From contig CAWEPT010000017.1 in the NCBI GenBank assembly GCA_963810965.1, positions 55,741-119,740 on the forward strand: a stretch of DNA of 64,000 nucleotides, given 5' to 3'. Below, piece by piece: positions 6,799-56,395 of the stretch (position 1 is its first letter; each line of letters opens with the position of its first letter). The position numbers were made by a program, and so were the translations under genes. This stretch comes from an uncultured delta proteobacterium (GTDB lineage Bacteria > Desulfobacterota > Syntrophia > Syntrophales > UBA2192). The notes beneath the pieces were generated by a model. It did not search any database. It had not been told where the DNA came from and worked only from the letters and a program-made list of their open reading frames with translations.

Positions 6799-8373
6799 AT
6801 GTCGAAACGGGTCATCATCATCGGTGCGGGCCTTGCGGGGCTGACGGCGGCCCATGCGGCGGCAAGGCAAGGGGCAACGGTTCTCGTTGTCGACCGGGGC
6901 CCCATCGGAATCGGGACGAACTCGGTGCTGGCCAACGGATTCTTTGCCGGCCCGTCGGAAAAATACAGCCCCGATGACTATATCCGTGACACCCTCCGGG
7001 CGGGGCGGGGACTCAACCGGGAATCCATGGTGAGGCTCGTTGCCCGGGAGGCGCCCTCTGCGTTCCAGCGCCTGCGGTCAGCCGGGGTGCTCCTGAAAGA
7101 AAGGGGTGCGCAGCGCTGTGTCGTCTCCCCGGATCCCTCCGTGATTCCCGGCGTTGCCCTCATGAGAAAGCTGGCGGGCCTGGTCAAAAACCTCGACGGC
7201 GTTCATGTCCTCCCCGGCTTCCAGGTCACCGAGCTGCCCTGTCACAACGGCAGGGTCTGCGGCGTCCGGGGTTTCAACCGCAAGGGCGAGGAAATGGACA
7301 TCGACGCCCCCGCCGTGGTCCTTGCCGCGGGAGGCGCAGGGGCCATCTATCGCCGTCATGACAACCAGAAGAAGATCCTGGGGCAGGGATATGCCCTGGC
7401 CGCGCAGGCGGGGCTCGATCTCTGGGACATGGAGTTCGTCCAGTTCTTCCCGCTGGTTCTTGCGGACCCGCGGCTGCCGGCCCTGATCGTCTATCCGCCT
7501 TTTGCACGCGAGGCGAAGCTCGTCGATTCATCCGGTGAGAGCATCCTCGAAAAGCACGGTCTCGGGGATGTCAACGAGGCGATCGTCAAGAAGCGCGACT
7601 CCTTCTCGGCCCTTCTCTTCGAGGAGGCGCAGGCGGGGGGCGTTTTTCTCGACCTTCGCGAGGTTCCCGCTTCGGCCTGGGATGTTCATCCCCTGGCCAT
7701 CTTCAAGAGGCTTCGCTTCAATTTCAGGGGAAAGCCCGTGGCCGTTGCACCGGCCGTCCACTTCACGATGGGCGGTCTGAGGACCGGCGAGACGTGCGAG
7801 ACGGACATCGTCGGCCTTTTTGCCTGCGGGGAGATCCTCTGGGGGCTTCACGGGGCAAACCGGATGGGCGGCAACGCGCTGACGGAGTGTGTCGTGTCGG
7901 GGGCCGTTGCCGGGCGAGCTGCGGCCGAACGGGCCCTGGGTGAAATGCCCGTTCCCTCCTGCCGGGAAAAGCCGCGGCAGCTCCCTGCGGCGGGCACTGT
8001 GCCGGGAGCCGGTGAAATTCGGGACATCCTGTCGGCGATCCGGGCGACGGCCTGGGAGTGCGCGGGGATTGTAAGGTCGGACGAAGGGTTGCGCAGGGGC
8101 ATGGAGAGGCTCGAGGCGATCGAGAAGCGCCTGAAGCCGCTTGGGGCGGCCGGTCCCGGCGGGCGCGCCGTCCTGGAGGATGCCAGGGCAGGGGCCCTCG
8201 TGCTGCGCGCCATCCTGCAGGCGAGCCTCGGGCGCAGGGAGAGCCGCGGGAGCTTCCTGCGGAGCGATTTTGCGGATGAGGACGACGGCAACTGGCGCAG
8301 GAACTCCTGCCTGGGCTACGACGCGGACAAAAACGCCTTCACGGTGAAGTATCTCCCCGTCGAAGGCGCCTGA
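6799..8373 (+). CDS. FAD-dependent oxidoreductase, L-aspartate oxidase / fumarate reductase flavoprotein family
   Basis: Intact 524-aa ORF. Contains the dinucleotide fold IIIGAGLAGLTAA, plus HFTMGGL and LFACGE..GLHGANRMGGNALTECVV. Confidence 0.75.
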   Translation: MSKRVIIIGAGLAGLTAAHAAARQGATVLVVDRGPIGIGTNSVLANGFFAGPSEKYSPDDYIRDTLRAGRGLNRESMVRLVAREAPSAFQRLRSAGVLLKERGAQRCVVSPDPSVIPGVALMRKLAGLVKNLDGVHVLPGFQVTELPCHNGRVCGVRGFNRKGEEMDIDAPAVVLAAGGAGAIYRRHDNQKKILGQGYALAAQAGLDLWDMEFVQFFPLVLADPRLPALIVYPPFAREAKLVDSSGESILEKHGLGDVNEAIVKKRDSFSALLFEEAQAGGVFLDLREVPASAWDVHPLAIFKRLRFNFRGKPVAVAPAVHFTMGGLRTGETCETDIVGLFACGEILWGLHGANRMGGNALTECVVSGAVAGRAAAERALGEMPVPSCREKPRQLPAAGTVPGAGEIRDILSAIRATAWECAGIVRSDEGLRRGMERLEAIEKRLKPLGAAGPGGRAVLEDARAGALVLRAILQASLGRRESRGSFLRSDFADEDDGNWRRNSCLGYDADKNAFTVKYLPVEGA

Positions 8374-8868: not shown

Positions 8869-9114
8869 TCCGTCAGCGGGAGCCGGAAAAATAAGTTCGG
8901 CAGGATATTTCGGGGTATCGGTTCGGAGTGAGAAAACAGGTTTAGTGCTTTGATTATGTCGGTACAGCTTACAGTGCATCCTGTGCAACAGGAATTACTT
9001 AATTATTTAATATAAAATAATATTTTTCGAAAATTCGTGTTTGGTTTTATTTCGCCCGCGGAAAAGTGTCGGTGGACTTTACATTCAGACTGCAAGTCCC
9101 CCTTTGTCGCATCC

Positions 9115-9140
9115 CTGCTCAATGCGCTTGAATTGAGCAG
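9115..9140. promoter_or_regulatory. Perfect 9-bp inverted repeat CTGCTCAAT-N8-ATTGAGCAG (candidate activator site)
   Basis: Read directly. Its centre lies about 95 bp upstream of the GG of the sigma54-like element at 9221. Confidence 0.4.
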
Positions 9141-9220
9141 CCGTATCAATTAAAATAGCAATACATTCGATTACTTGACACTGAAATGGGCGGCGCTCTC
9201 CTCTGCCTGCTTCGACCACG

Positions 9221-9236
9221 TGGTATGGAGATTGCC
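9221..9236 (+). promoter_or_regulatory. Sigma54-type -24/-12 promoter candidate for the plus-strand EPS operon
   Basis: TGGTATGGAGATTGCC compared with the consensus TGGCACG-N4-TTGCW. GG (9222-9223) and GC (9234-9235) have the canonical 12-nt offset. Confidence 0.45.
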
Positions 9237-9754
9237 TTATGATTGGACAAGAGAGAGAAGGAAAAGGTGTCGCGGGTCCGGGGTTGTCCAGCAATTCCCC
9301 TTCACCGGAGGCAATCCGGCTCAAGGAAATAATTCGTCAACCGATACAGATCATTGGAACAATGCATCGGTGAGTGCCCCCGGCATGTCAACAGAAACGA
9401 GGGGATTCCCGTATCCGCCACGCCTTCATGATTCCGAAATCCATACATAGAAGACCGTCCGTTTCCTGAACCCGGATGGAGACTGTGTGCGCGAGTGAAT
9501 ATCCGGTGTTCAAGCCTGGGATCAGAGCCTCACGGGGCATGACAGGGGGCTTTGCGGGAGAGAGGTACGTGCTTCTGTCTCGCAGGGCCCTCCGGATGGT
9601 CAGGCGCCATCACTCACGGCGCCTCGATGCCTTTTCAGTTCGTTCATGTAACTGAGAGGGCGTAAGCCTGCCTGCTGCACCTCGAAGCGGATACCTGCCT
9701 GATCGGAAAGCGAAGCACAACCCATCTCATGTCTGACCGGTTCCTCCTGATCGA

Positions 9755-11428
9755 ATGATGACGACGGATAGTCCATCCCCCAAGGTTTCCGCGATAGGCG
9801 TTGTCGCAGAAAAAAATGAACAAGGCATCGTCGAAGAATTCTTCGAATTATTCAAGACGCCTTGGGAATTCGCAAGTAGCGAAAAGTCTTACGACATTCT
9901 GCTGATAACTGCGGATACGGAAGATAAGATCGATGCGCCCGTCGTCATCCTCTACGGGAGCGGGAAAAGAAAGATCGATGAGCGCTGTGGGATTCGGCTC
10001 GCGAAGGGCAGGTCCGCGGTTCGCTATTGAGATGGCAGGGCAAGGTCGTTCCAATCTACGGGAAGGCGTCGGCTCTGGAGTCCCTCCGGGGAAGCCGTCG
10101 TGGAGATTCAAGGCACCCATGAAGCCGCCGGATTACGAATTGGAAATCAGGGCCGACCTCTCTATCGCTTCGGCTTCGATTTATTCCGGGAGGTGGAGCA
10201 TCTTCTCCGCTCGGGTCAGCCCGCCACAATCATGCTTCCATCCCCACTCTCGATATTCACATAGAGCTTCTCCGGGACTGCATTCTGTCGGCGGGTGTCC
10301 CGCTTGTCGAGATCCCCCCTTTTCCTCCGAACACCGCTTCATCGCGTGCCTCACCCACGACGTGGATTTTGTCGGGATCCGCCGTCACAGGTTCGATCCC
10401 ACGATGTTCGGGTTCATCTACCGGGCACTCTTCGGTTCGCTGGTCCGGGCGATGCGGGGTTCCCTGTCATGGAAAAAATTGCTGGCCAATTGGGAAGGCC
10501 GTTATCTCGCTGCCCGGCATCTATCTGGGTATCCAGAAGGACGTCATGATCCAGTTCGACCGCTATGCCGACATCGAGCGGGGTCTGCCGTCGACCTTTT
10601 TCCTCATCCCCTATAAAAACAGGCCCGGGATCGACCTGGAAGGTCGCACTACGAAAGGGCGTGCCGTCAAATACGACATCGGCGATATCGCCCCGGAAGT
10701 TCAGAAACTCCTCGCCCGCGGCTGCGAGATCGGTCTCCACGGCATCGACGCCTGGCACAGCATCGGAGAGGGGCCACGACGAGCGGATGCAGGTCTCCCG
10801 GATGATTGTCAAGGCCGGACATGGGCAGTCCGAATGCATTGGCTGTTCTTTTCGGAAGACTCTCCCGACGTGCTGGAGCAGGCCGGCTTTTCCTACGACT
10901 CGACAGCGGGATACAACGATACGGTCGGTTACAGGTCCGGCACGTCCCAGGCATTCCGGCTGCCGGGAACGGCGCTCTATGAGCTGCCGCTGCACATCAT
11001 GGATACGGCGCTCCTTTCCCCCGGACGGATGGCACTTTCGGAGGCCGCTGCATTCGAAAGGATCAAGGAAATCTGTTCCCATGCATCGGCAAACGGGGGG
11101 GCCCTCACCATCAACTGGCATCACCGCAGTGTGGGGCCTGAGCGTTTCTGGGATGATTTGTACATAAACGCTGCTCGGGGAGATGAAAAAGAACGGGGCA
11201 TGGTTTGCGACGGCACGGGACGCCGTCTCGTGGTTTGATAAGAGACGATCGGTTGTGTTTCGCAGGGTCGACAGGCGCGGCACGGAAATGCACATCCAAC
11301 TCACGTGCCCTTCCGGGGATGACACGCCCGGCGTTGTTTTGAGGGTTCATGCCCCTTCCCCGACAGCACTCTGCGTCATTCGTGAGCGGCAGAGGCAGGG
11401 GTGGAAAAGATCAGCCCGTGTATGGTGA
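9755..11428 (+). CDS. Polysaccharide deacetylase-like (NodB-homology) protein with an N-terminal extra domain (at least 3 frame changes)
   Basis: Reconstructed from ORFs 9755-10030, 9933-10616, 10369-11238 and 11183-11428. Motifs include CLTHDVDFVG, STFFLIPY, EIGLHGIDAW and ALTINWHHRS. Confidence 0.6.
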
Positions 11429-11483
11429 CCTCGACACCGTTGTTCCCATCCATTTGTAGATCATGGGCAAGAGGAGAACCTCG

Positions 11484-12690
11484 ATGGAAGCAGAAAAACG
11501 AAAAACAGCGGTCTACATGGTGGTCTATGGCACCTACGCCACGGATCCCCGTGTTCGCAAAGATGCCGAGACGCTCGCCTGCCTTGAGGATTTTACCGTA
11601 ACGGTCGTCGTACCGAAACTAGGGGATGCTCCTGGCACAACGCAACTAAACGGCGTCAACGTGGTTGAGTTGGATGTCTGTCGATACCGGGGAAAGAGCA
11701 TATACGGGTATCTGGCATCGTACCTGAAATTTTTGTGGGCTGCATTCCGGCACTGTTCCAGGCTGACCCTTCGCGGCGGGATCGATGTGGTCCACATACA
11801 CAACATGCCGGATTTCCTCATTTTCTCGGCCATCGTGCCGCGCCTTCTGGGGAAGAAAATCATCCTGGACATCCACGACACCGTACCCGAAACCTTTATC
11901 GGTAAGTTCAGAAACCATTCCGGCTTGATGTTCCGGCTCCTGTGCATGGAAGAATCCATCTGTTGCCGCCTTGCACACCGGATCCTCTGCGTCAATCACC
12001 CTCAGCGAGATCTGCTGGTGAGCCGGGGTATCCCCGAACACAAGATCTCGATCTCCATGAACGTTCCCGACGAACGATGGTTCGGTAACGGTTCAGGCGA
12101 CGATCCTGGAGGAAAAGCGACGAACAGCTTCGACCTGGTATACCATGGATTATTGGCCAAGAGGCTGGGTGTCGACCTGACCATTCGGGCCGTCTCGAAC
12201 CTCAACGGCAGTATCCCCGGTCTGAAGTTTCATGTCATCGGATCCGGTGATGACCGGGAAGAACTCATTTCTTTGGCCGAGAGCCTGGGCCTGAGTTCCT
12301 GTATTCAGTTCCACGGATCCATCCCCATCGATCAAATTGCCACTACCCTGCGTCCCATGCATCTGGGAGTCGTTTCCAACCGGAGCAACATCGCAACGGA
12401 ACTCATGCTGCCCGTCAAGATGCTTGAATACGTCGCGCTGGGCATCCCGGTCGTTGCGCCGCCGCTGCGAACGATTAAACATTACTTCTCCGATGACATG
12501 CTGAGTTACTTTGAGACGGAAGACGTCGACTCGCTATCATTGGCCATCCGGGATGCCTACCGGAATGAGGAAAAACGACTGAAGCAGGCGAAAAGCGCCA
12601 GAAAATTTCTGGACCAGTACGGCTGGGTGCGACAGAAGCAGGAATTCATCGGTCTTTACCGATCGCTGGCCCTGCAGTCCGGATCCGTGA
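11484..12690 (+). CDS. GT4-family (GT-B) glycosyltransferase; 3' end uncertain
   Basis: First part of ORF 11463-13451. ATG 11484 follows GAGGAG. Motifs include VVHIHNMPDFL, F.VIGSGD and LPVKMLEYVALGIPVVAP. An out-of-frame TGA at 12688-12690 plus AAGGAG-ATG 12720 suggest a lost stop. Confidence 0.75.
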
Positions 12691-12719
12691 AAGAAAAAAC
12701 AAAAAAGGAGATCAGCAGC

Positions 12720-13704
12720 ATGCTGAACATGGCGCAGATCGGGGTCGGATACTGGGGCCCGAATCTGTTGAGGAATATGGTCTCGAGCAAGAGATGCCGG
12801 GTGAAAACGGTTGTCGACCTGTCCCCCGAGCGGCAGGAATACGTTCGCGGCCTTTATCCGGCGGTCAATGTCACGGCGGACGTTCGTGACGTGTTTGAAG
12901 ACCCTGAAATCCAGGCCGTCGTGATCGCTACGCCCGTCAAGTCGCATTTCGATCTGGCCATGAAAGCCCTGGGAGCGGGAAAGCACATCATGGTCGAAAA
13001 GCCAATCGCCACAACGGTTGCCGAGGTTGACGAGATCGGCAGACCTCGCCGACAAAAAGAAGCTTGTCGCGATGGTCGGCCACACGTTCCTCTACAATGC
13101 GGCCGTCCGTTACGTGAAGAAACTGATCGACGCGGGCGAACTGGGCGACATCCGCTACATCTACAGCCAGAGGCTCAACCTGGGCAGGATCCGGTCCGAC
13201 GTCGATGCCCTGTGGAACTTTGCCCCCCACGACATCAGCATCATCCAGTACTGGCTGGGGGACCCGGAGCCGGTTTCTGTCATGAAAAGGGGAGTCGACT
13301 ACATCCAGGAAACAATCGACGACGTTGTCTTCATGAACATCTGTTACCCGAACAAGGTCATGGCGAACATCCATGTCAGCTGGCTGGATCCGCGAAGGCT
13401 CCGCCAGATGACCGTCGTGGGATCCAAAAAGATGGTCGTCTACGACAATGACGCCGAAAACAAGATCGCCATCTACGACAAGGGGATCGAGCGCAAGGCG
13501 GTCCTGGGGCAGAACATGGACTATGACAACCCCCGGTCGCGGAGCTTCAATCATCGAGAAGGGGACGTGATTCTGCCACGAATCGATTTTCCGGAGCCGA
13601 TCAAGGTCGAGATCGAGCACTTCGCGGACTGCGTCGAAAACGGCACCATGTGCCTGAGCGGTATCGATCATGCCCGCAAGGTCGTCCGTATCCTGGCCTC
13701 CTGA
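12720..13704 (+). CDS. Gfo/Idh/MocA oxidoreductase, WbpB-like UDP-sugar 3-dehydrogenase (frame change near 13040)
   Basis: MLNMAQIGVGYWGPNLLRN..AVVIATPVKSHF..GKHIMVEKP (tail of ORF 11463-13451) joins ORF 13018-13704. Confidence 0.75.
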
Positions 13705-50649: not shown

Positions 50650-51820
50650 TCAGCCCTCTTCTCTTTTGTCCGGGAAATCCTGCGGCGAGGACGAGCGCCG
50701 ACTCGGCGATTTCTCTTTCTCCGCGAGCCGTTCCTGTAAGTGTTCGACCTTTGCCGCCAGCTTCGCCCGGCTGTCGTAGCTCTTTTTCATCTCCCGGAAG
50801 AACTTGGTGAAAACCTTTTCCAGGTCTTCCCGGTTTCCGTTCCGGGCCTGCAGCTCCCGCGTCAGGTTCCGGGTCTCGTTCTCCTGCGAAGCCAGCCTCT
50901 CCTCCAGCATGCGGATCCTTGCCTGCATTTCCTGAAGAATCGGTGTGGCCGTTTCGGATGCTCCGACCCCCTCCTTTTCCTTTTCGTCGGGAAAGGAGTC
51001 CTGCGTATCCCCCTTCGTTCCCAGATTTCTTGCCTGGGCAACCGCCTCGATCAGGTCACGGCCGATGATCTTTACATCATCGGCGTATCCGTACACAAAA
51101 GCGGCATCGCAGAGAGAATTGATGAGCCTGGGGATGCCAAGGGAGTGCTTGTAGATGGCCTTGAGGGCCTCAGGATCAAAAACATCGAGATTCTGAGCCC
51201 CGGCAACCGTAAGACGATGACGGATGTAGCCGTCGACCTGCACCTGGTCCAGCGCATCGAGGTGGCAATAGACTGTGATCCTCTGGACGAACTGTTCCAT
51301 GCGCTTCTGCTGAAGTTTCTCCTTCAACTGGGGCTGGCCCACGAGAATCATCTGGATCAGGTGGTGCTTTTCGGATTCCAGGTTGGAGAGCATCCGGATT
51401 TCTTCCAGCGACCGCTCCGGCAGGTTCTGGGCCTCGTCGATGATCAGGATGACCCGTTCCCTCTTTGCGAATTGCCGAGGAGATAGGCATAGAGACGGGT
51501 CAGCAGGAGCGTCTTGTCGGCATTGGCCACCTCGAGGTCGAACTCCTGACAGATCATCTTCAGCAGTTCCTGGGGGTGAACGAAGGTGTTGTTGATGATG
51601 CCGACATGGATGGTCTGGGGGATCTTGCGCAGGAGATAGTTGATCAGGGTCGTCTTGCCGGAGCCGATTTCGCCGGTCACGACAACAAATCCCTTGCTTT
51701 CCTGGATGGCATACTCCAGGTGGGAGTAACATTCTCATGACCCGGGCTCATGTAGAGGTAGTCCGGGTCCGGGGTCAGGTTGAAGGGTTTTTCCTTTAAT
51801 CCGTAAAAAGACTCGTACAT
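50650..51820 (-). CDS. ExeA-like AAA ATPase, PEP-CTERM-locus secretion ATPase type, with a C-terminal coiled coil (2 frame changes)
   Basis: Starts MYESFYGLKEKPFNLTPDPDYLY at 51820. Walker A GEIGSGKTT lies in ORF 51444-51680. ..ILIIDEAQNL.. and the remainder lie in ORF 50650-51738. Confidence 0.75.
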
Positions 51821-51835
51821 TCGTTCGTCGTTCCT

Positions 51836-52645
51836 TTAATCCAGCGATTTGTTAAAAACCGTTCCGATGATGGGCTTGTTTTTCATCATCTCCAGTACTT
51901 TCAGAACATCTTCCTTCTTTGTCTTTTCCGCCTCCACGACGAGGAGGATCCCGTCCACCAAATTGGCCAAGACAAGCGGATCGGCCGATGTCAGAACCGA
52001 AGAGGTGTCAAAGATGATGAAACGCTCCGGATACCGTTCTTTCATCTCTTTCAGCAGAGCTTTCATCTTTTCCGAGCCGAGCAACTCCGCCGAATTGGTG
52101 TGAGGGCTGCCGCCGCGGAGTATGACAATCCGATCCATTCCCGGATTCACGAGACCGTCGGTCATCGGTTTTTTGTCGACCAGGCAGTCCGCAAACCCGG
52201 GCCCATCGTCCAGCCCCATGTATTTGTGAATGGTCGGTTTCTTGATGTCGCCATCCACCAGCAGGACCGTTTTATTGAATTGATGCGAAAAGCTGATCGC
52301 AAGGTTGATCGCCGTCAGGGTCTTCCCCTCGCCGGGATTGGCGCTCGTGATCATGAGGGTGTTTTTCCCCTCTTCGCTCATGGTGTTCAGGATCTGCGTC
52401 CGCAGAATCTTGAGTCGATCCGCTTCATCCCGGGTACAGACGGAAATCACCCGGTTTCTGTGCAGGAGATCCTCATCGCACTCGATGACTTTCGTGCTCG
52501 AGTAGACGGGTTTCAGCGGTTTGTATTGAGCCCGGGTTGTTTGTTCGGTCTGTGGGACCGCCGGTTCGATGCTTCGTCCATCCCCCGTCTCAATCTTTTC
52601 TCTGTCTTGTTTTGCTTTCTCAAGGGCCTGTCTCAATTTGCTCAT
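51836..52645 (-). CDS. BY-kinase-like P-loop ATPase (EpsG / PEP-CTERM-locus tyrosine autokinase type)
   Basis: Intact 269-aa ORF. Contains Walker A ITSANPGEGKT, plus VLLVDGD and IFDTS. No Tyr-rich C-terminal tail (it ends ..GTVFNKSLD). Confidence 0.75.
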   Translation of the reverse strand: MSKLRQALEKAKQDREKIETGDGRSIEPAVPQTEQTTRAQYKPLKPVYSSTKVIECDEDLLHRNRVISVCTRDEADRLKILRTQILNTMSEEGKNTLMITSANPGEGKTLTAINLAISFSHQFNKTVLLVDGDIKKPTIHKYMGLDDGPGFADCLVDKKPMTDGLVNPGMDRIVILRGGSPHTNSAELLGSEKMKALLKEMKERYPERFIIFDTSSVLTSADPLVLANLVDGILLVVEAEKTKKEDVLKVLEMMKNKPIIGTVFNKSLD

Positions 52646-52717: not shown

Positions 52718-54365
52718 TTATTTTTCCTTCCTTGCCAGATTCGATGCTCCCCGGTGCAAATCCTCGAATACCCGTGAAATGATATTCTTTTCCGATCTGG
52801 CTTTCTTTTCCTCGTCGGTTATCACATACGGCATGATGGTCAATACGGGGACCTTCGTAATTTTGCGCAGTTGCTCGGGGGATTTGATGGAATGATCGAG
52901 GTTTTCCGTCATGATGGAGGCAAACAGCCCGGCAAACAGGGACAGGAAAAGTCCGGCCAGCATGATTTTTAACCGGTCCGGCTTTTCCGGTTTAAGGGGA
53001 ACCCGAGGCTCCTCGATGACCAGGAATCGTTCTCCAAGCTGGGTGTCCTCGATTTCTTTCGCTACTTTTGCATCGGTCAGCTTGGCCAGCGTCTCATTGT
53101 ACTGCCTTGACGCGTTATCGTAGTCCTGGGCCAGTTTGCTGTATTCGCTCTGCACCAGTGAGGACATCTGGCTCTTTCTGGCGAATTCGCTGATCTTCCT
53201 CTGGATCTCGTCCCGCTTTCTGATTTGCCGGTTCAGCTCGTCTTCCGCGGAATTCGATCTTGCCTGGCGCCGGCTTCGTTTCTGCTCTTCGACCTGCTTC
53301 GATAAAACGGATATCTCTTCTGACAGTCTGCTTCACCGTCGGGTCATCGGGTCCGGAGTTCTTTTTCAGCTCGGCATGCCGGTTTCTGAGTGCCTCGAGT
53401 TCGCTTTCTTTCTTGCTCAGCTCGTCCGATATGCCCAACTGGTTTTCAAGCCTTTGAATTTCGGCTCTCGTTTTTCGGACATCGGGATGCTTGTCCGAAT
53501 ATCTGGACTGCAGGCTCGTGAGTTGTGCGCGCAATTGCGTCAGGCGAACCATCGGATCGTTCGAAGGTTGTGCGCCTGCCACCCCTCCACCGGCAGGGAC
53601 ATTGGAAGCCAGTTGAGATCCGGATGTCCCGGCTTTCAGTTCTTCCAGTTGCTTGATCCTGGCATTGACCTCTTCGAGCTGCTGGTTCAGGCGATAGGTC
53701 TGCTCGAGATTGAAAGCCATGTTCTCGGGAAATTCGCCGGCATGCGCTCTCTTGAAATCGTTGAGTCTTTTTTCAACAGCATTTGTCTGTTCTTTTAATT
53801 GATTGAGTTTCTCCTGTAATACCGCTGTGGCCTGCTTGGTGATCTGATCCCTTCTTTGGAGATTTTTTTCAACATAGAGAGAGGAGAGCTCTGTTGCAAC
53901 TTTATGAGCCGTCAACGGATCGTCGGCTGAATAAGAAAGTCTAAAGGCAACCGTCTGGCTGGGGCTATATGACCTGGGATCGATATCTCCGGACTTGATC
54001 GTTTTCAGTTCTATATTCTTGCGCATATCATTCAGTGCGGCCTCAACGGCACGCGGATCATCCGGATTTGGAATCAGGTTGAGTTTCTTGGAGATCTGAA
54101 GCAACTTGTCCTGTGTCAAAATCTGCTGGGTGATAACTTGCAGGCGCTCCTCGACAAATCCCATGGAAACGCTTTTCAGAAGCTCGCCGGCTATCTGTCC
54201 TTCGATTAAAATCGTCGCGGAGGATACATACACCTTGGGTGAGAAAAGAGCGAAGAGGACCGATCCGGCAAAAACAAGAGATGAAATAACAATGAATATC
54301 TTTTTCCGCCTTCTGATGAACCCTTTGACAAATTTAGCGTCTATTTTTTCCGGTTGTTCGCGCAT
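52718..54365 (-). CDS. Wzz/PCP-type chain-length determinant (EpsF-like) (at least 2 frame changes)
   Basis: ORFs 53115-54374 and 52718-53167. It has an N-terminal TM segment, a long coiled periplasmic region and a C-terminal TM segment (IMLAGLFLSLFAGLFASI). Confidence 0.7.
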
Positions 54366-54456
54366 AGGCACCAAGCTATCCTCAATAAAAAATCGATTTG
54401 TTATGAATTGTCACAGCCTGTCGACTATGTATACGGCAATTTCGCGTATGTCTTCA

Positions 54457-54473
54457 TGCAATAAATACGCCCC
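54457..54473 (-). promoter_or_regulatory. Sigma54-type -24/-12 promoter candidate for epsF-epsG-ATPase
   Basis: The minus strand reads GGGGCGTATTTATTGCA. GG and GC have the canonical 12-nt offset and the TTGCA -12 box is present. It lies about 90 nt upstream of ATG 54365. Confidence 0.4.
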
Positions 54474-54556
54474 TATTTTCCCTGAATTCTTAAAAAAATC
54501 AAGAGATTATTTGATTCTGTCCGCCATGACTGCATCGTGTAACTCACCGCTTTCAT

Positions 54557-54579
54557 TATTCAAATAGCGATATTGAATA
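54557..54579. promoter_or_regulatory. Inverted repeat TATTCAA-N9-TTGAATA (candidate activator site)
   Basis: Read directly. Its centre lies about 97 bp upstream of the -24 GG. It shares TCAA..TTGA half-sites with the palindrome at 9115-9140. Confidence 0.35.
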
Positions 54580-54785
54580 CTTTCCTCGTATTTTTTGCTC
54601 CAGATGCAGTGAAGATAAAAATGTGTAACCATTATATACATTACAATAAATCCATGACGGATATGGAGTAAGGTCGCTTGATTCGAATTGAACCTGCAAA
54701 CTTTGCAGCTTAAGGGAGGAAAGGCTACATGATGTGCAGGAAAGAGACGCCGGGCTGGTGCATGACGCAGTGAAATGCAATGGGT

Positions 54786-56384
54786 TTATACACTTGTCTT
54801 TCGCAGAAGCAGCTTGAGTTCCTCCAGCGTATCCGCCTCCTCGGGCGGCTTGTCCTTCCACTTCACGATGCGGGGCGAGCGGAGGGTCAGGCCCGATTTG
54901 TGTCGCGCAGACGTCTCGATGCCCTCGAAGGCGATCTCGAAGACGAGCTGCGGACTCACGGAGCGCACGGGTCCGAATTTCTCGAGGGTGTTCTGCCGGA
55001 TGAAGGCGTCGATGCGCCCGATTTCGTCATCGGTGAGCCCGGAGCAGGCCCTGGCCACGGGAACGAGGTCGCCCCGGCGCCAAACCCCGAAGGTGTAGTC
55101 GGTAAAAAGGTTTTCCCTCCCAGCCTGTCCGGGCCGGGCGTAGATGAGGATCGCGTCGATCGTGTGAGGCTCGATCTTCCACTTCCACCAGCTGCCCCGG
55201 TGCCGCCCCGCCTCGTAGGGCGAATCGAGGTGCTTGAGCATGAGCCCCTCGGCTTGCACGGCGCGACACTCCCGGCGCCTCGCCGTCAGATCCTCCCAGC
55301 TTGCATCTTTCAGGATCTCCGACAGGCGGAGGCGTCCCTCAAAGCCGCGTTGTCCGAGAATCCTCTCCAGTTCGGCCCGCCGATTTCGCAGGGGCTCCGT
55401 CCGGATGTCCTTTCCCTGCGACTCGAGGAGGTCGAAGGCCATGAAGATGACGGGAATCTCCTCGAGGATCTTCCGGGTCGGTGACTGGCGCCCGATCCGT
55501 CTTCTGCAGCAGGCTGAAGGGCAGGGGGCTTCCGTCTTTCCAGGGGAGGATCTCCCCGTCGATGACCGTGCCGTCCGGCAGGGTTGCCGCTGCGTCCGCA
55601 AGCTCGGGAAATGTCCGTCCAAGCAGCTCCCCGCCCCGGGACCAGATGAAGGCCATCCCGCCGCGTTTGACGACCTGGGCCCGGATCCCGTCCCGTTTCC
55701 ATTCGGCGCACCACTGGCGCCTGTCTCCGAGGGTCTCGGGCAGCGCGTCGAGCGGGAAGGCGAGCTGGAGCGGGTAAGGGCGGCTCACATCCGCCTCCCC
55801 CCGGTCCGGCGAGAGGAGCCAGCGGAAAAACTCTCCTGTGGGCTCCCAGGCGCTCATGAGCCGGTGCGAGATGACGGTGGCTTCCAGACCGGCGAGCTCG
55901 CCGAGTGCCCGGATGATCGTCTGCCGCGAGATGCCCACACGGAGATCCCCCGTGATCATCTTGTTCCAGACAAGCCGCTGCCTGTCGTCCATCTCCCGCC
56001 AGGTGCCGAGAATGGAGTCCCTGAGGGATGTCTCATCGTCATCCTGCAGCGGCAGAAGCCTCTCCTCCACCGTTGCCCGCAGCCCCAGGGGGCTCGACAC
56101 CCCGTCAGCCGCCGGGAGCAGCAGCGCGATCGTTTCTGCCACATCGCCCACCGCCTCATTGCATTCGTCGATAAGCCAACCCGGTATACCCGCTGCCAAG
56201 GAGGCCCATTCTTTGAGTTTCGCCGTGGGGACAGTGCGCTTGATTTTGTCGCCGATAAGAAACCAGAGGGCCCAGGCCGCATCGTCGGGCGGCGCCTCGG
56301 CAAAGTAGCGCTTCAGCGCCTCGACCTTGCTGCGGTCTTCGTCGTCTCGTCGAGGGTGAAATAAAGGTCGGTAAACCGTTGCAT
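54786..56384 (-). CDS. ATP-dependent DNA ligase (ligase-associated damage-response type) (2 frame changes)
   Basis: ORFs 55339-56391 and 54786-55622. Contains the adenylation motif CAEWKRDGIR, plus EGLMLK and WWKWK. The natural start MQRFTDLYFTLDETTKT (ATG 56384) is out of frame with the body. Confidence 0.85.
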
Positions 56385-56395
56385 AAGACACCGGG

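Follow-up and report, generated by a model that had tools for sequence, protein, structure and literature searches.

The stretch of DNA analysed here (the window; 64,000 nucleotides of contig CAWEPT010000017.1, from an uncultured Syntrophales lineage) contains an exopolysaccharide (EPS) island with a candidate control region at either end. Polysaccharide genes on the plus strand span about 9755 to 49509 and converge with a minus-strand export operon, which confirms the view of the initial annotation that two convergent operons lie within one island. In the related genome L146, a 69-aa gene of the left flank directly joins the cold-shock, cNMP-binding, and ABC genes of the right flank; because the region is absent from this genome, we consider it a true island. 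The genes at its right end are as follows:

52718-54365, minus strand: XrtA-system polysaccharide chain-length determinant ("epsF"; TIGR03007)
52645-51836, minus strand: XrtA-associated tyrosine autokinase (TIGR03018, 2.1e-60)
51738-50650, minus strand: XrtA/PEP-CTERM ATPase (TIGR03015, 1e-48)
ending at 54786, minus strand: ATP-dependent DNA ligase, the upstream neighbour of the region at 54375-54785

The chain-length determinant is broken into two pieces by a frameshift (54365-53115 and 53167-52718), which match TIGR03007 with E-values of 1.4e-38 (profile positions 10-303) and 1.7e-25 (profile positions 353-477), and the tyrosine autokinase and ATPase genes follow downstream in the same operon (50650-52645, minus strand). 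The intergenic region at 54375-54785 is the control region of this chain-length, tyrosine kinase, and ATPase operon. The closest relatives are metagenome-assembled genomes labelled delta proteobacterium, Syntrophaceae, or Syntrophales, with 80% identity in the protein downstream of the region, and the order of ligase, intergenic region, and chain-length determinant is kept in all close relatives. The start codon of the chain-length determinant (ATG or GTG) aligns across all relatives, and the ATG at 54365 is conserved.

We also surveyed the window for regulators and RNA elements. Neither the window nor the fetched close-relative loci contain a gene for an enhancer-binding protein, rpoN, or ihf; a GAFTGA-type protein is absent from the window and from 19 close-relative loci, and no PrsK, PrsR, or PrsT gene is found within the window. 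Rfam gave no match in the window at gathering thresholds and none in either regulatory region at E-values up to 1, and an exact-protein look-up with the tyrosine kinase of the window returned no record.

Left-end promoter and PrsR-type sites

That sigma-54 controls PEP-CTERM/EPS loci is a prediction dating from 2006 (PMC1569441). At PEP-CTERM genes, a 17-nt motif ending in TTTACA (motif 1), sometimes repeated, was described upstream of a sigma-54 motif and assigned to PrsR (Haft 2006, PMC1569441), and the predicted sites of DVUA0057, the PrsR orthologue of Desulfovibrio vulgaris, include TGTCGGACAGGCTTACA and TGTCGGAGAACCTTACA (Kazakov 2015; PMC4641369, Additional file 4). On plasmid pDV1, the motif TGTCGG-N5-YTTACA precedes the prsT operon and two PEP-CTERM genes. 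We took motif 1 from pDV1 and from Additional file 4 of Kazakov 2015 (PMC4641369) and scanned 128,000 positions of the window with a PrsR matrix made from 28 of the DVUA0057 sites in that study. Deriving the motif from the fetched loci, either from TTTACA paired with sigma-54 matches or from PEP-CTERM genes, yielded too few instances. For sigma-54 promoters, the scoring matrix was built from 87 D. vulgaris promoters published in PMC4641369 (Additional file 6). The features at the left end are:

8957-8973, plus strand: distal PrsR-type site TGTCGGTACAGCTTACA (PEP-CTERM box motif 1), 16.4 bits, the best match in the window
9067-9083, plus strand: proximal PrsR-type site TGTCGGTGGACTTTACA, 15.6 bits, the second best match in the window
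9115-9140, no strand assigned: palindrome CTGCTCAAT-N8-ATTGAGCAG, between the PrsR-type sites and the promoter
9220-9236, plus strand: putative sigma-54 promoter GTGGTATGGAGATTGCC, predicted start near 9247

For comparison of the left flank, relatives were reached through the FAD oxidoreductase gene (6799-8373), which was chosen as the anchor because a homologue search from the N-terminal part of the first gene in the left operon had produced a single weak match. The -24/-12-type element scores 11.4 bits, ranks ninth in the window, and lies in a 20-nt block of identity (GTGGTA..GAGATTGCCTTA) shared with four relatives amid otherwise diverged sequence; GTGGTA..GAGATTGC.TTA is invariant in L142, L143, L145, and L144, and its flanks diverge. 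From its conservation, the element is well supported as a sigma-54 promoter. Both PrsR-type sites are perfect matches to TGTCGG-N5-YTTACA. They lie 110 nt apart and are conserved together with the promoter in the same four relatives (L142-L145), and the proximal site is 136 nt upstream of the sigma-54 motif, compared with 122-133 nt in the relatives.

Taken as a whole, the left end (8957-9236) is a full match to the PrsR (DVUA0057) regulon, with two perfect 17-mers followed by a conserved -24/-12 element. Its distances of 136 and 246 nt fall within the range of the D. vulgaris targets (Kazakov 2015, PMC4641369), although the proximal spacer of 136 nt is longer than the 32-92 nt reported for PEP-CTERM protein genes (Haft 2006, PMC1569441). 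The initial annotation had named PrsR-like proteins as possible activators, and for the left end this guess proves right. Its sequence marks the left end as a canonical PrsR target, with activator sites predicted at 8957-8973 and 9067-9083 and not in the palindrome.

The palindrome had been proposed as an enhancer site on the basis of its TCAA..TTGA half-sites. Its sequence and that of TGGTATGGAGATTGCC at 9221-9236 were given correctly, as were the distances, and arms of equal length (9 bp) arose in 12 of 1000 shuffles. The relatives contradict the proposed role: both arms are altered in L142 with pairing kept, a different inverted repeat occupies the position in L145, and L144 has none, while the promoter stays. 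The left-end palindrome thus behaves as a structure or as dispensable DNA rather than as a fixed protein site, and by sequence it is not a PrsR site.

Candidate promoters at the right end

At the right end, the chain-length determinant served as the query against genomes and metagenomes to collect orthologous upstream regions, the ligase being upstream in all of them. The protein identities of the chain-length determinant were 96, 93, 89, 81, 80, 79, 77, 75, and 44%, the last belonging to the most distant relative, L002 (EpsF only 44% identical). Two sets of signals near the gene could be read as a promoter:

54457-54473, minus strand: sigma-54-like -24/-12 element GGGGCGTATTTATTGCA with GG-N10-GC spacing, predicted start near 54446
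54475-54502, minus strand: sigma-70-like pair, -35 TTGATT (54502-54497) and -10 GAAAAT (54480-54475), with a 16-nt spacer

The initial annotation had placed a -24/-12 element with GG/GC spacing on the minus strand at 54473-54457, about 90 nt from epsF, and this holds. In GGGGCGTATTTATTGCA, GG (54471-54470) and GC (54459-54458) are separated by exactly 10 bases, and the distance from the -12 C to the conserved ATG (54365) is 92 nt. The match itself is weak. The element scores 8.3 bits, compared with a minimum of 9.4 and a median of 16.8 in the training set of the matrix, and its match to TGGCACG-N4-TTGCW falls outside the score range of accepted promoters, although the matrix comes from a distant organism of higher G+C content. 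It ranks 23rd in the window, where 22 matches, mostly within coding sequence, are at least as good, and its strength was equalled in 206 of 2000 shuffles of the region (about 10%).

Conservation speaks more clearly for the element than its score does. Ten of 11 lineages keep GG-N10-GC, over a range of EpsF identity from 96% down to 44%, the variant lineage being L071, in which AG replaces GG. The case for sigma-54 gains from the fact that GG and GC move together across indels: a one-base spacer deletion in L068 is accompanied by a one-base shift of GG, so that both dinucleotides stand at -1 relative to the flanking conserved block, and in L002 both lie two bases farther (+2) from the conserved GAAAAT block. 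No base of the -12 element TTGCAT varies among the 13 sequences with 75-96% identity; however, the entire 60-nt block surrounding GGGGCGTATTTATTGCA is conserved, and the conservation of TTGCA is therefore not specific to the sigma-54-like element. Matrix scores in three relatives are low (2.8 in L068, 1.9 in L071, and -1.8 in L002). Among 55 genomes, sigma-54 motifs were not enriched upstream of chain-length determinants, with a mean best score of 3.5 on the forward strand versus 5.9 on the reverse. In other taxa, beyond this clade, the operon does not begin with the chain-length determinant, and for this reason the promoter comparison was confined to the clade.

A second reading of the same block is an ordinary sigma-70 promoter, in which TTGATT/16/GAAAAT would drive the operon from a start near 54468, the A/T-rich AAATAAT just upstream would act like an UP element, conventional regulators would bind the conserved dyad and the AATGAWAGCG block described below, and the likeness of GG and TTGCA to a sigma-54 promoter would be fortuitous. 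Wzz/Wzc-type EPS export operons have sigma-70 promoters and conventional regulators, and the right end shares with them its gene content, a candidate -35/-10 pair, and an A/T-rich upstream tract. Nothing in the region varies less among 11 lineages than the two hexamers (TTGAT is 91-100% and AAAAT 100% conserved), AAAAT is kept even in L002, where the sigma-54-like score collapses, and the -10 candidate has the A at position 2 and the T at position 6. The invariant TTGATT/16/GAAAAT fits a sigma-70 promoter as well as the neighbouring element fits a sigma-54 promoter, and the competing sigma-54 match is weak and within chance. Against this, the hexamers are themselves weak, since they fit only 8 of 12 consensus positions, below our scan threshold, and such matches are common in A+T-rich DNA; a scan of 54300-54850 for TTGACA and TATAAT 16-18 nt apart (at least 9 of 12 positions) found no match, where 1.3 were expected by chance. 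A sigma-70 promoter would also leave unexplained the invariant TTGCAT, which would then lie at +7 to +12, the N10 between GG and GC that is held across indels, and the fixed position of the dyad about 117 bp upstream of a start near 54468. On balance, we consider an ordinary sigma-70 promoter the leading alternative, though rather unlikely. We also considered GAATTC as an ECF-type -35 element and rejected it, as the AAC core is absent.

Returning to the sigma-54 reading, the right-end region may hold a weak sigma-54 promoter. We regard its -24/-12 element as a putative, moderately supported promoter with a weak consensus match, backed mainly by the conservation of GG-N10-GC. The proposal that such an element precedes the first operon gene at both ends of the island is accordingly upheld for the left end and moderately so for the right.

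Upstream elements at the right end

Between the putative promoter and the ligase gene, the following features were identified:

54497-54509, plus strand: IHF-like core AATCAAGAGATTA with an A-tract (AAAAAA) on its 5' side, centred about -57 from the predicted start
54548-54557, minus strand: conserved block AATGAAAGCG (AATGAWAGCG)
54557-54579, no strand assigned: palindrome TATTCAA-N9-TTGAATA, whose left arm overlaps the right arm of the conserved dyad
54576-54592, minus strand: 17-bp dyad AATACGAGGAAAGTATT (AATAC-N7-GTATT), centred about -138

The palindrome was the element put forward as the enhancer site of this end. It is present as described, with its centre about 98 bp from the GG, and yet its properties are those expected by chance. 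An inverted repeat with 7-bp arms and a spacer of 4-16 nt appeared in 309 of 1000 dinucleotide shuffles of this A+T-rich, 411-bp region, pairing is complete (7/7) only in the window and in its closest lineages, L063 and L064, compared with 0-5 of 7 pairs in eight others, and column identity across it is 0.70-0.75 versus a regional mean of 0.77. With conservation confined to three lineages, the palindrome does not hold up as an enhancer site and is, judging from these comparisons, most likely a lineage-specific accident.

The dyad that it overlaps behaves differently. AATAC-N7-GTATT occurs once in the window and is the best-conserved upstream element, with a column identity of 0.86 versus the regional mean of 0.77. 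Its arms are identical in L002, despite the 44% identity of EpsF, and in L003 and L071 an A:T pair has become G:C, with both arms changed. From the centre of the dyad to the -24 G the distance is 112-115 nt in all 10 lineages with GG-N10-GC, despite divergence and indels in between. This makes AATACGAGGAAAGTATT the best candidate for an upstream activator site at the right end.

The IHF-like core sits between the dyad and the -24/-12 element. AATCAAGAGATTA fits the IHF consensus, WATCAANNNNTTR with a 5' A/T tract. Its core, ATCAA-N4-TTA, is lost in L002 but retained by the other 10 of the 11 lineages, and the N4 varies (GAGA, GTGA, GATA, GCTA, GCGA, or CTGA). The AATGAWAGCG block is invariant save for the W (A/T) position in 13 sequences at 75-96% protein identity and is not kept in L002. 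An ops/JUMPstart-like reading of AGCGGTGAG was rejected, as its invariant part is AGCG only.

In their order and distances (a dyad near -138, an IHF-like site near -57, and GG-N10-GC at -24/-12), these predicted elements resemble the classical enhancer/IHF/sigma-54 promoters, such as nifH, Pu, and glnHp2. The right end differs from them in having GGGGCGT instead of TGGCACG and in its conserved sigma-70-like hexamers, which overlap the IHF-like site. The elements, the way they are conserved and spaced, and the lack of PrsR-type sites described below are observations; that sigma-54, IHF, and an activator would bind here, and where transcription would begin, we infer. The sigma-54 element (GG 54471-70, TTGCA 54461-57) would set the start near 54446, the IHF-like site centred near -57 would bend the intervening DNA, and the dyad AATAC-N7-GTATT (54592-54576), near -138, would bind an enhancer-binding protein encoded outside the window. 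We tentatively favour such a three-part enhancer-dependent promoter, made up of the dyad, the IHF-like site, and a weak -24/-12 element, with slightly less than even confidence.

Regulators of the two operons

The initial annotation had suggested that one enhancer-binding protein recognizes TCAA..TTGA palindromes about 95-97 bp upstream of both sigma-54 promoters and so co-activates the convergent operons. The two palindromes do lie at similar distances from their GG/GC elements, and the 9-bp arms on the left are uncommon by chance (12/1000). The following observations speak against this model. The half-sites TCAA and TTGA are indeed common to both ends, but their spacing, which had been described as shared, differs by one base (TCAA-N10-TTGA on the left versus TCAA-N9-TTGA on the right), and the arms have only TCAA in common. 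No word of 8 or more bases is common to both regulatory regions. On the right, the palindrome is within chance (309/1000) and poorly paired in eight lineages (0-5/7), and on the left it is changed, replaced, or deleted in relatives that keep the promoter. Nor do the two ends mirror each other in architecture, as the left end already carries two canonical PrsR-type 17-mers and the right end none. Shuffles, relatives, and differing spacing all contradict a single activator acting through these palindromes, and we regard it as highly improbable.

A common regulator could also act without the palindromes. PrsR might control the right-end operon from a distant or strongly degenerate site, or indirectly by way of another regulator, so that both ends would answer the same signal without sharing a nearby site. 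The genes are components of the XrtA/PEP-CTERM system, and the right-end operon has the same gene set as a D. vulgaris target operon of the PrsR regulon (Rajeev 2011, PMC3333781; Kazakov 2015). For that operon, DVUA0036-0041, which carries the genes for the chain-length determinant, tyrosine kinase, and ATPase, a sigma-54 promoter has been predicted, and DVUA0057 targets it (PMC4641369, Additional files 5 and 6; PMC3333781), the sites lying 220-240 bp ahead of the promoter. Enhancers can work at a distance (PMC4641369). The right end differs from the PrsR regulon in that it lacks TGTCGG-N5-YTTACA and has a dyad of its own, AATAC-N7-GTATT. Within 54375-54800 the PrsR matrix reaches at most 8.7 bits, less than for any of the 28 published sites, and this match lies downstream of the putative promoter. 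The best right-end match to TGTCGG-N5-YTTACA has 3 mismatches in 12 positions, a level reached in 56% of shuffles, and no site of at least 10 bits was found in the intergenic region among the 14 related loci scanned. Remote or indirect control by PrsR is, in our estimation, improbable.

Two further candidates were set aside. A 14.1-bit PrsR-matrix match at 55324-55308 is a coding-sequence coincidence: it lies inside the ligase gene, is without the ACA end, and drifts along with the ligase coding sequence in relatives. TTACAC (54542-54537, 64 nt upstream of the -24/-12 element) was considered as the 3' end of motif 1 and rejected, as there is no TGTCGG half and TTACA is not invariant (TTATA, TTAAA, and TTGCA occur).

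As TGTCGG-N5-YTTACA is absent from the right end but occurs twice at the left-end promoter, the activator of the three-part promoter is probably not PrsR, and each of the convergent operons would then answer to its own activator. Extended to the island as a whole, its halves would depend on two sigma-54 activators, with PrsR acting on the left (biosynthesis) and a second, dyad-binding protein on the right (chain length and export). We consider this arrangement possible but doubtful.

Sigma-54/PrsR control of PEP-CTERM/EPS loci rests on prediction plus partial experiment (PMC1569441, PMC3333781, PMC4641369, PMC9850573), having been partly tested in Desulfovibrio, Zoogloea, and Aquincola. Against this background, the left end is a further case of known PrsR/sigma-54 control of EPS genes, and the right end amounts to a weak variant of it at best. 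Another such example, from an uncultured Syntrophales lineage, adds little by itself. The value of the analysis is corrective, as it locates the PrsR-type sites of the left end, and because the right-end promoter is without such sites, the idea of a shared palindrome should be dropped. If the right-end dyad is the site of a second activator, synthesis and export would be regulated separately within one island, and polymer synthesis on the one hand and polymer length and export on the other could be tuned by separate signals. Such split regulation, if true, would be of modest interest for the formation of biofilms and aggregates in syntrophic communities.

The left-end palindrome and the operon leader

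The palindrome at 9115-9140, at the left end of the island, was aligned with the corresponding region of four left-flank relatives (L142, L143, L145, and L144). Both arms are altered in L142, with pairing retained (CTGTTGAAT / ATTCAACAG), while L145 has another inverted repeat, AGATC-N7-GATCT, in its place, and L144 lacks the palindrome. No T-run follows it. To judge from this alignment, the palindrome behaves like a hairpin or like spacer DNA that is dispensable, and not like a fixed site for a protein.

The leader of the left operon (9247-9754, approximately 508 nt) contains long conserved stretches, one of which, at approximately 9631-9663, is an invariant hairpin, GCCTTTTCAGTT-N9-AACTGAGAGGGC. 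This hairpin is present in all four relatives and, because its stem is invariant, shows no covariation among them; it also had no match in Rfam. It may represent an unrecognized cis-regulatory RNA.

Inverted repeats and 17-mers at the right end

Directly past the stop codon of the ATP-dependent DNA ligase gene, the conserved segments CCTGCA ... TTTGCAGG (54688-54745, minus strand) could pair, with G:U replacements in L001 and L072. In the window, a perfect palindrome, CTGCAAA-G-TTTGCAG, is present as well. This may be a terminator-like structure of the ligase gene, albeit one with no T-run.

The 17-mer TGTATATAATGGTTACA (54624-54640, minus strand) has a TGT-N11-ACA layout, as many activator sites of Desulfovibrio do in general outline. 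It falls in a 14-nt insertion confined to the window and two relatives, L063 and L064, and is therefore not conserved. Within the ligase ORF, TGTCGGAGATCCTGAAA (55308-55324, minus strand) scored 14.1 bits with the PrsR matrix, which was built from 28 DVUA0057 sites; we rejected it as a chance match, as it lacks the ACA end and varies with the coding sequence in relatives.

Another motif, TTGGCACGGATATTGTA, recurs in EPS loci of Syntrophorhabdus and other delta-proteobacteria (L018 at 19853, L028 at 19120, L043 at 17102, and L044 at 19156). It is directly preceded by TTACA repeats and reads TTGTA at the position of the TTGC of sigma-54 promoters.

Island distribution and gene integrity

Presence of the island, along with the DNA ligase, varies among close relatives (window 8868-58641 versus L146 11862-14185 and L144 12063-14142). 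In L146, which lacks the island, a 69-aa gene directly abuts cold-shock, cNMP-binding, and ABC genes. At this junction, L144 has transposase and integrase genes, as well as a rearranged copy of the PrsR-site/sigma-54 module upstream of a FemAB-like gene.

Many window genes are split or fused by frameshifts when compared to intact orthologues.

Split and fused genes in the window
9755-11430, first left-operon gene: at least three ORFs (564 aa in L142 and L145)
11463-13451, 413-aa glycosyltransferase and 327-aa GFO/IDH/MocA oxidoreductase: seemingly fused
52718-54365, chain-length determinant: two ORFs
54786-56391, ATP-dependent DNA ligase: two overlapping ORFs

These frameshifts suggest either that the assembly is of an error-prone (long-read) type or that the island is decaying.
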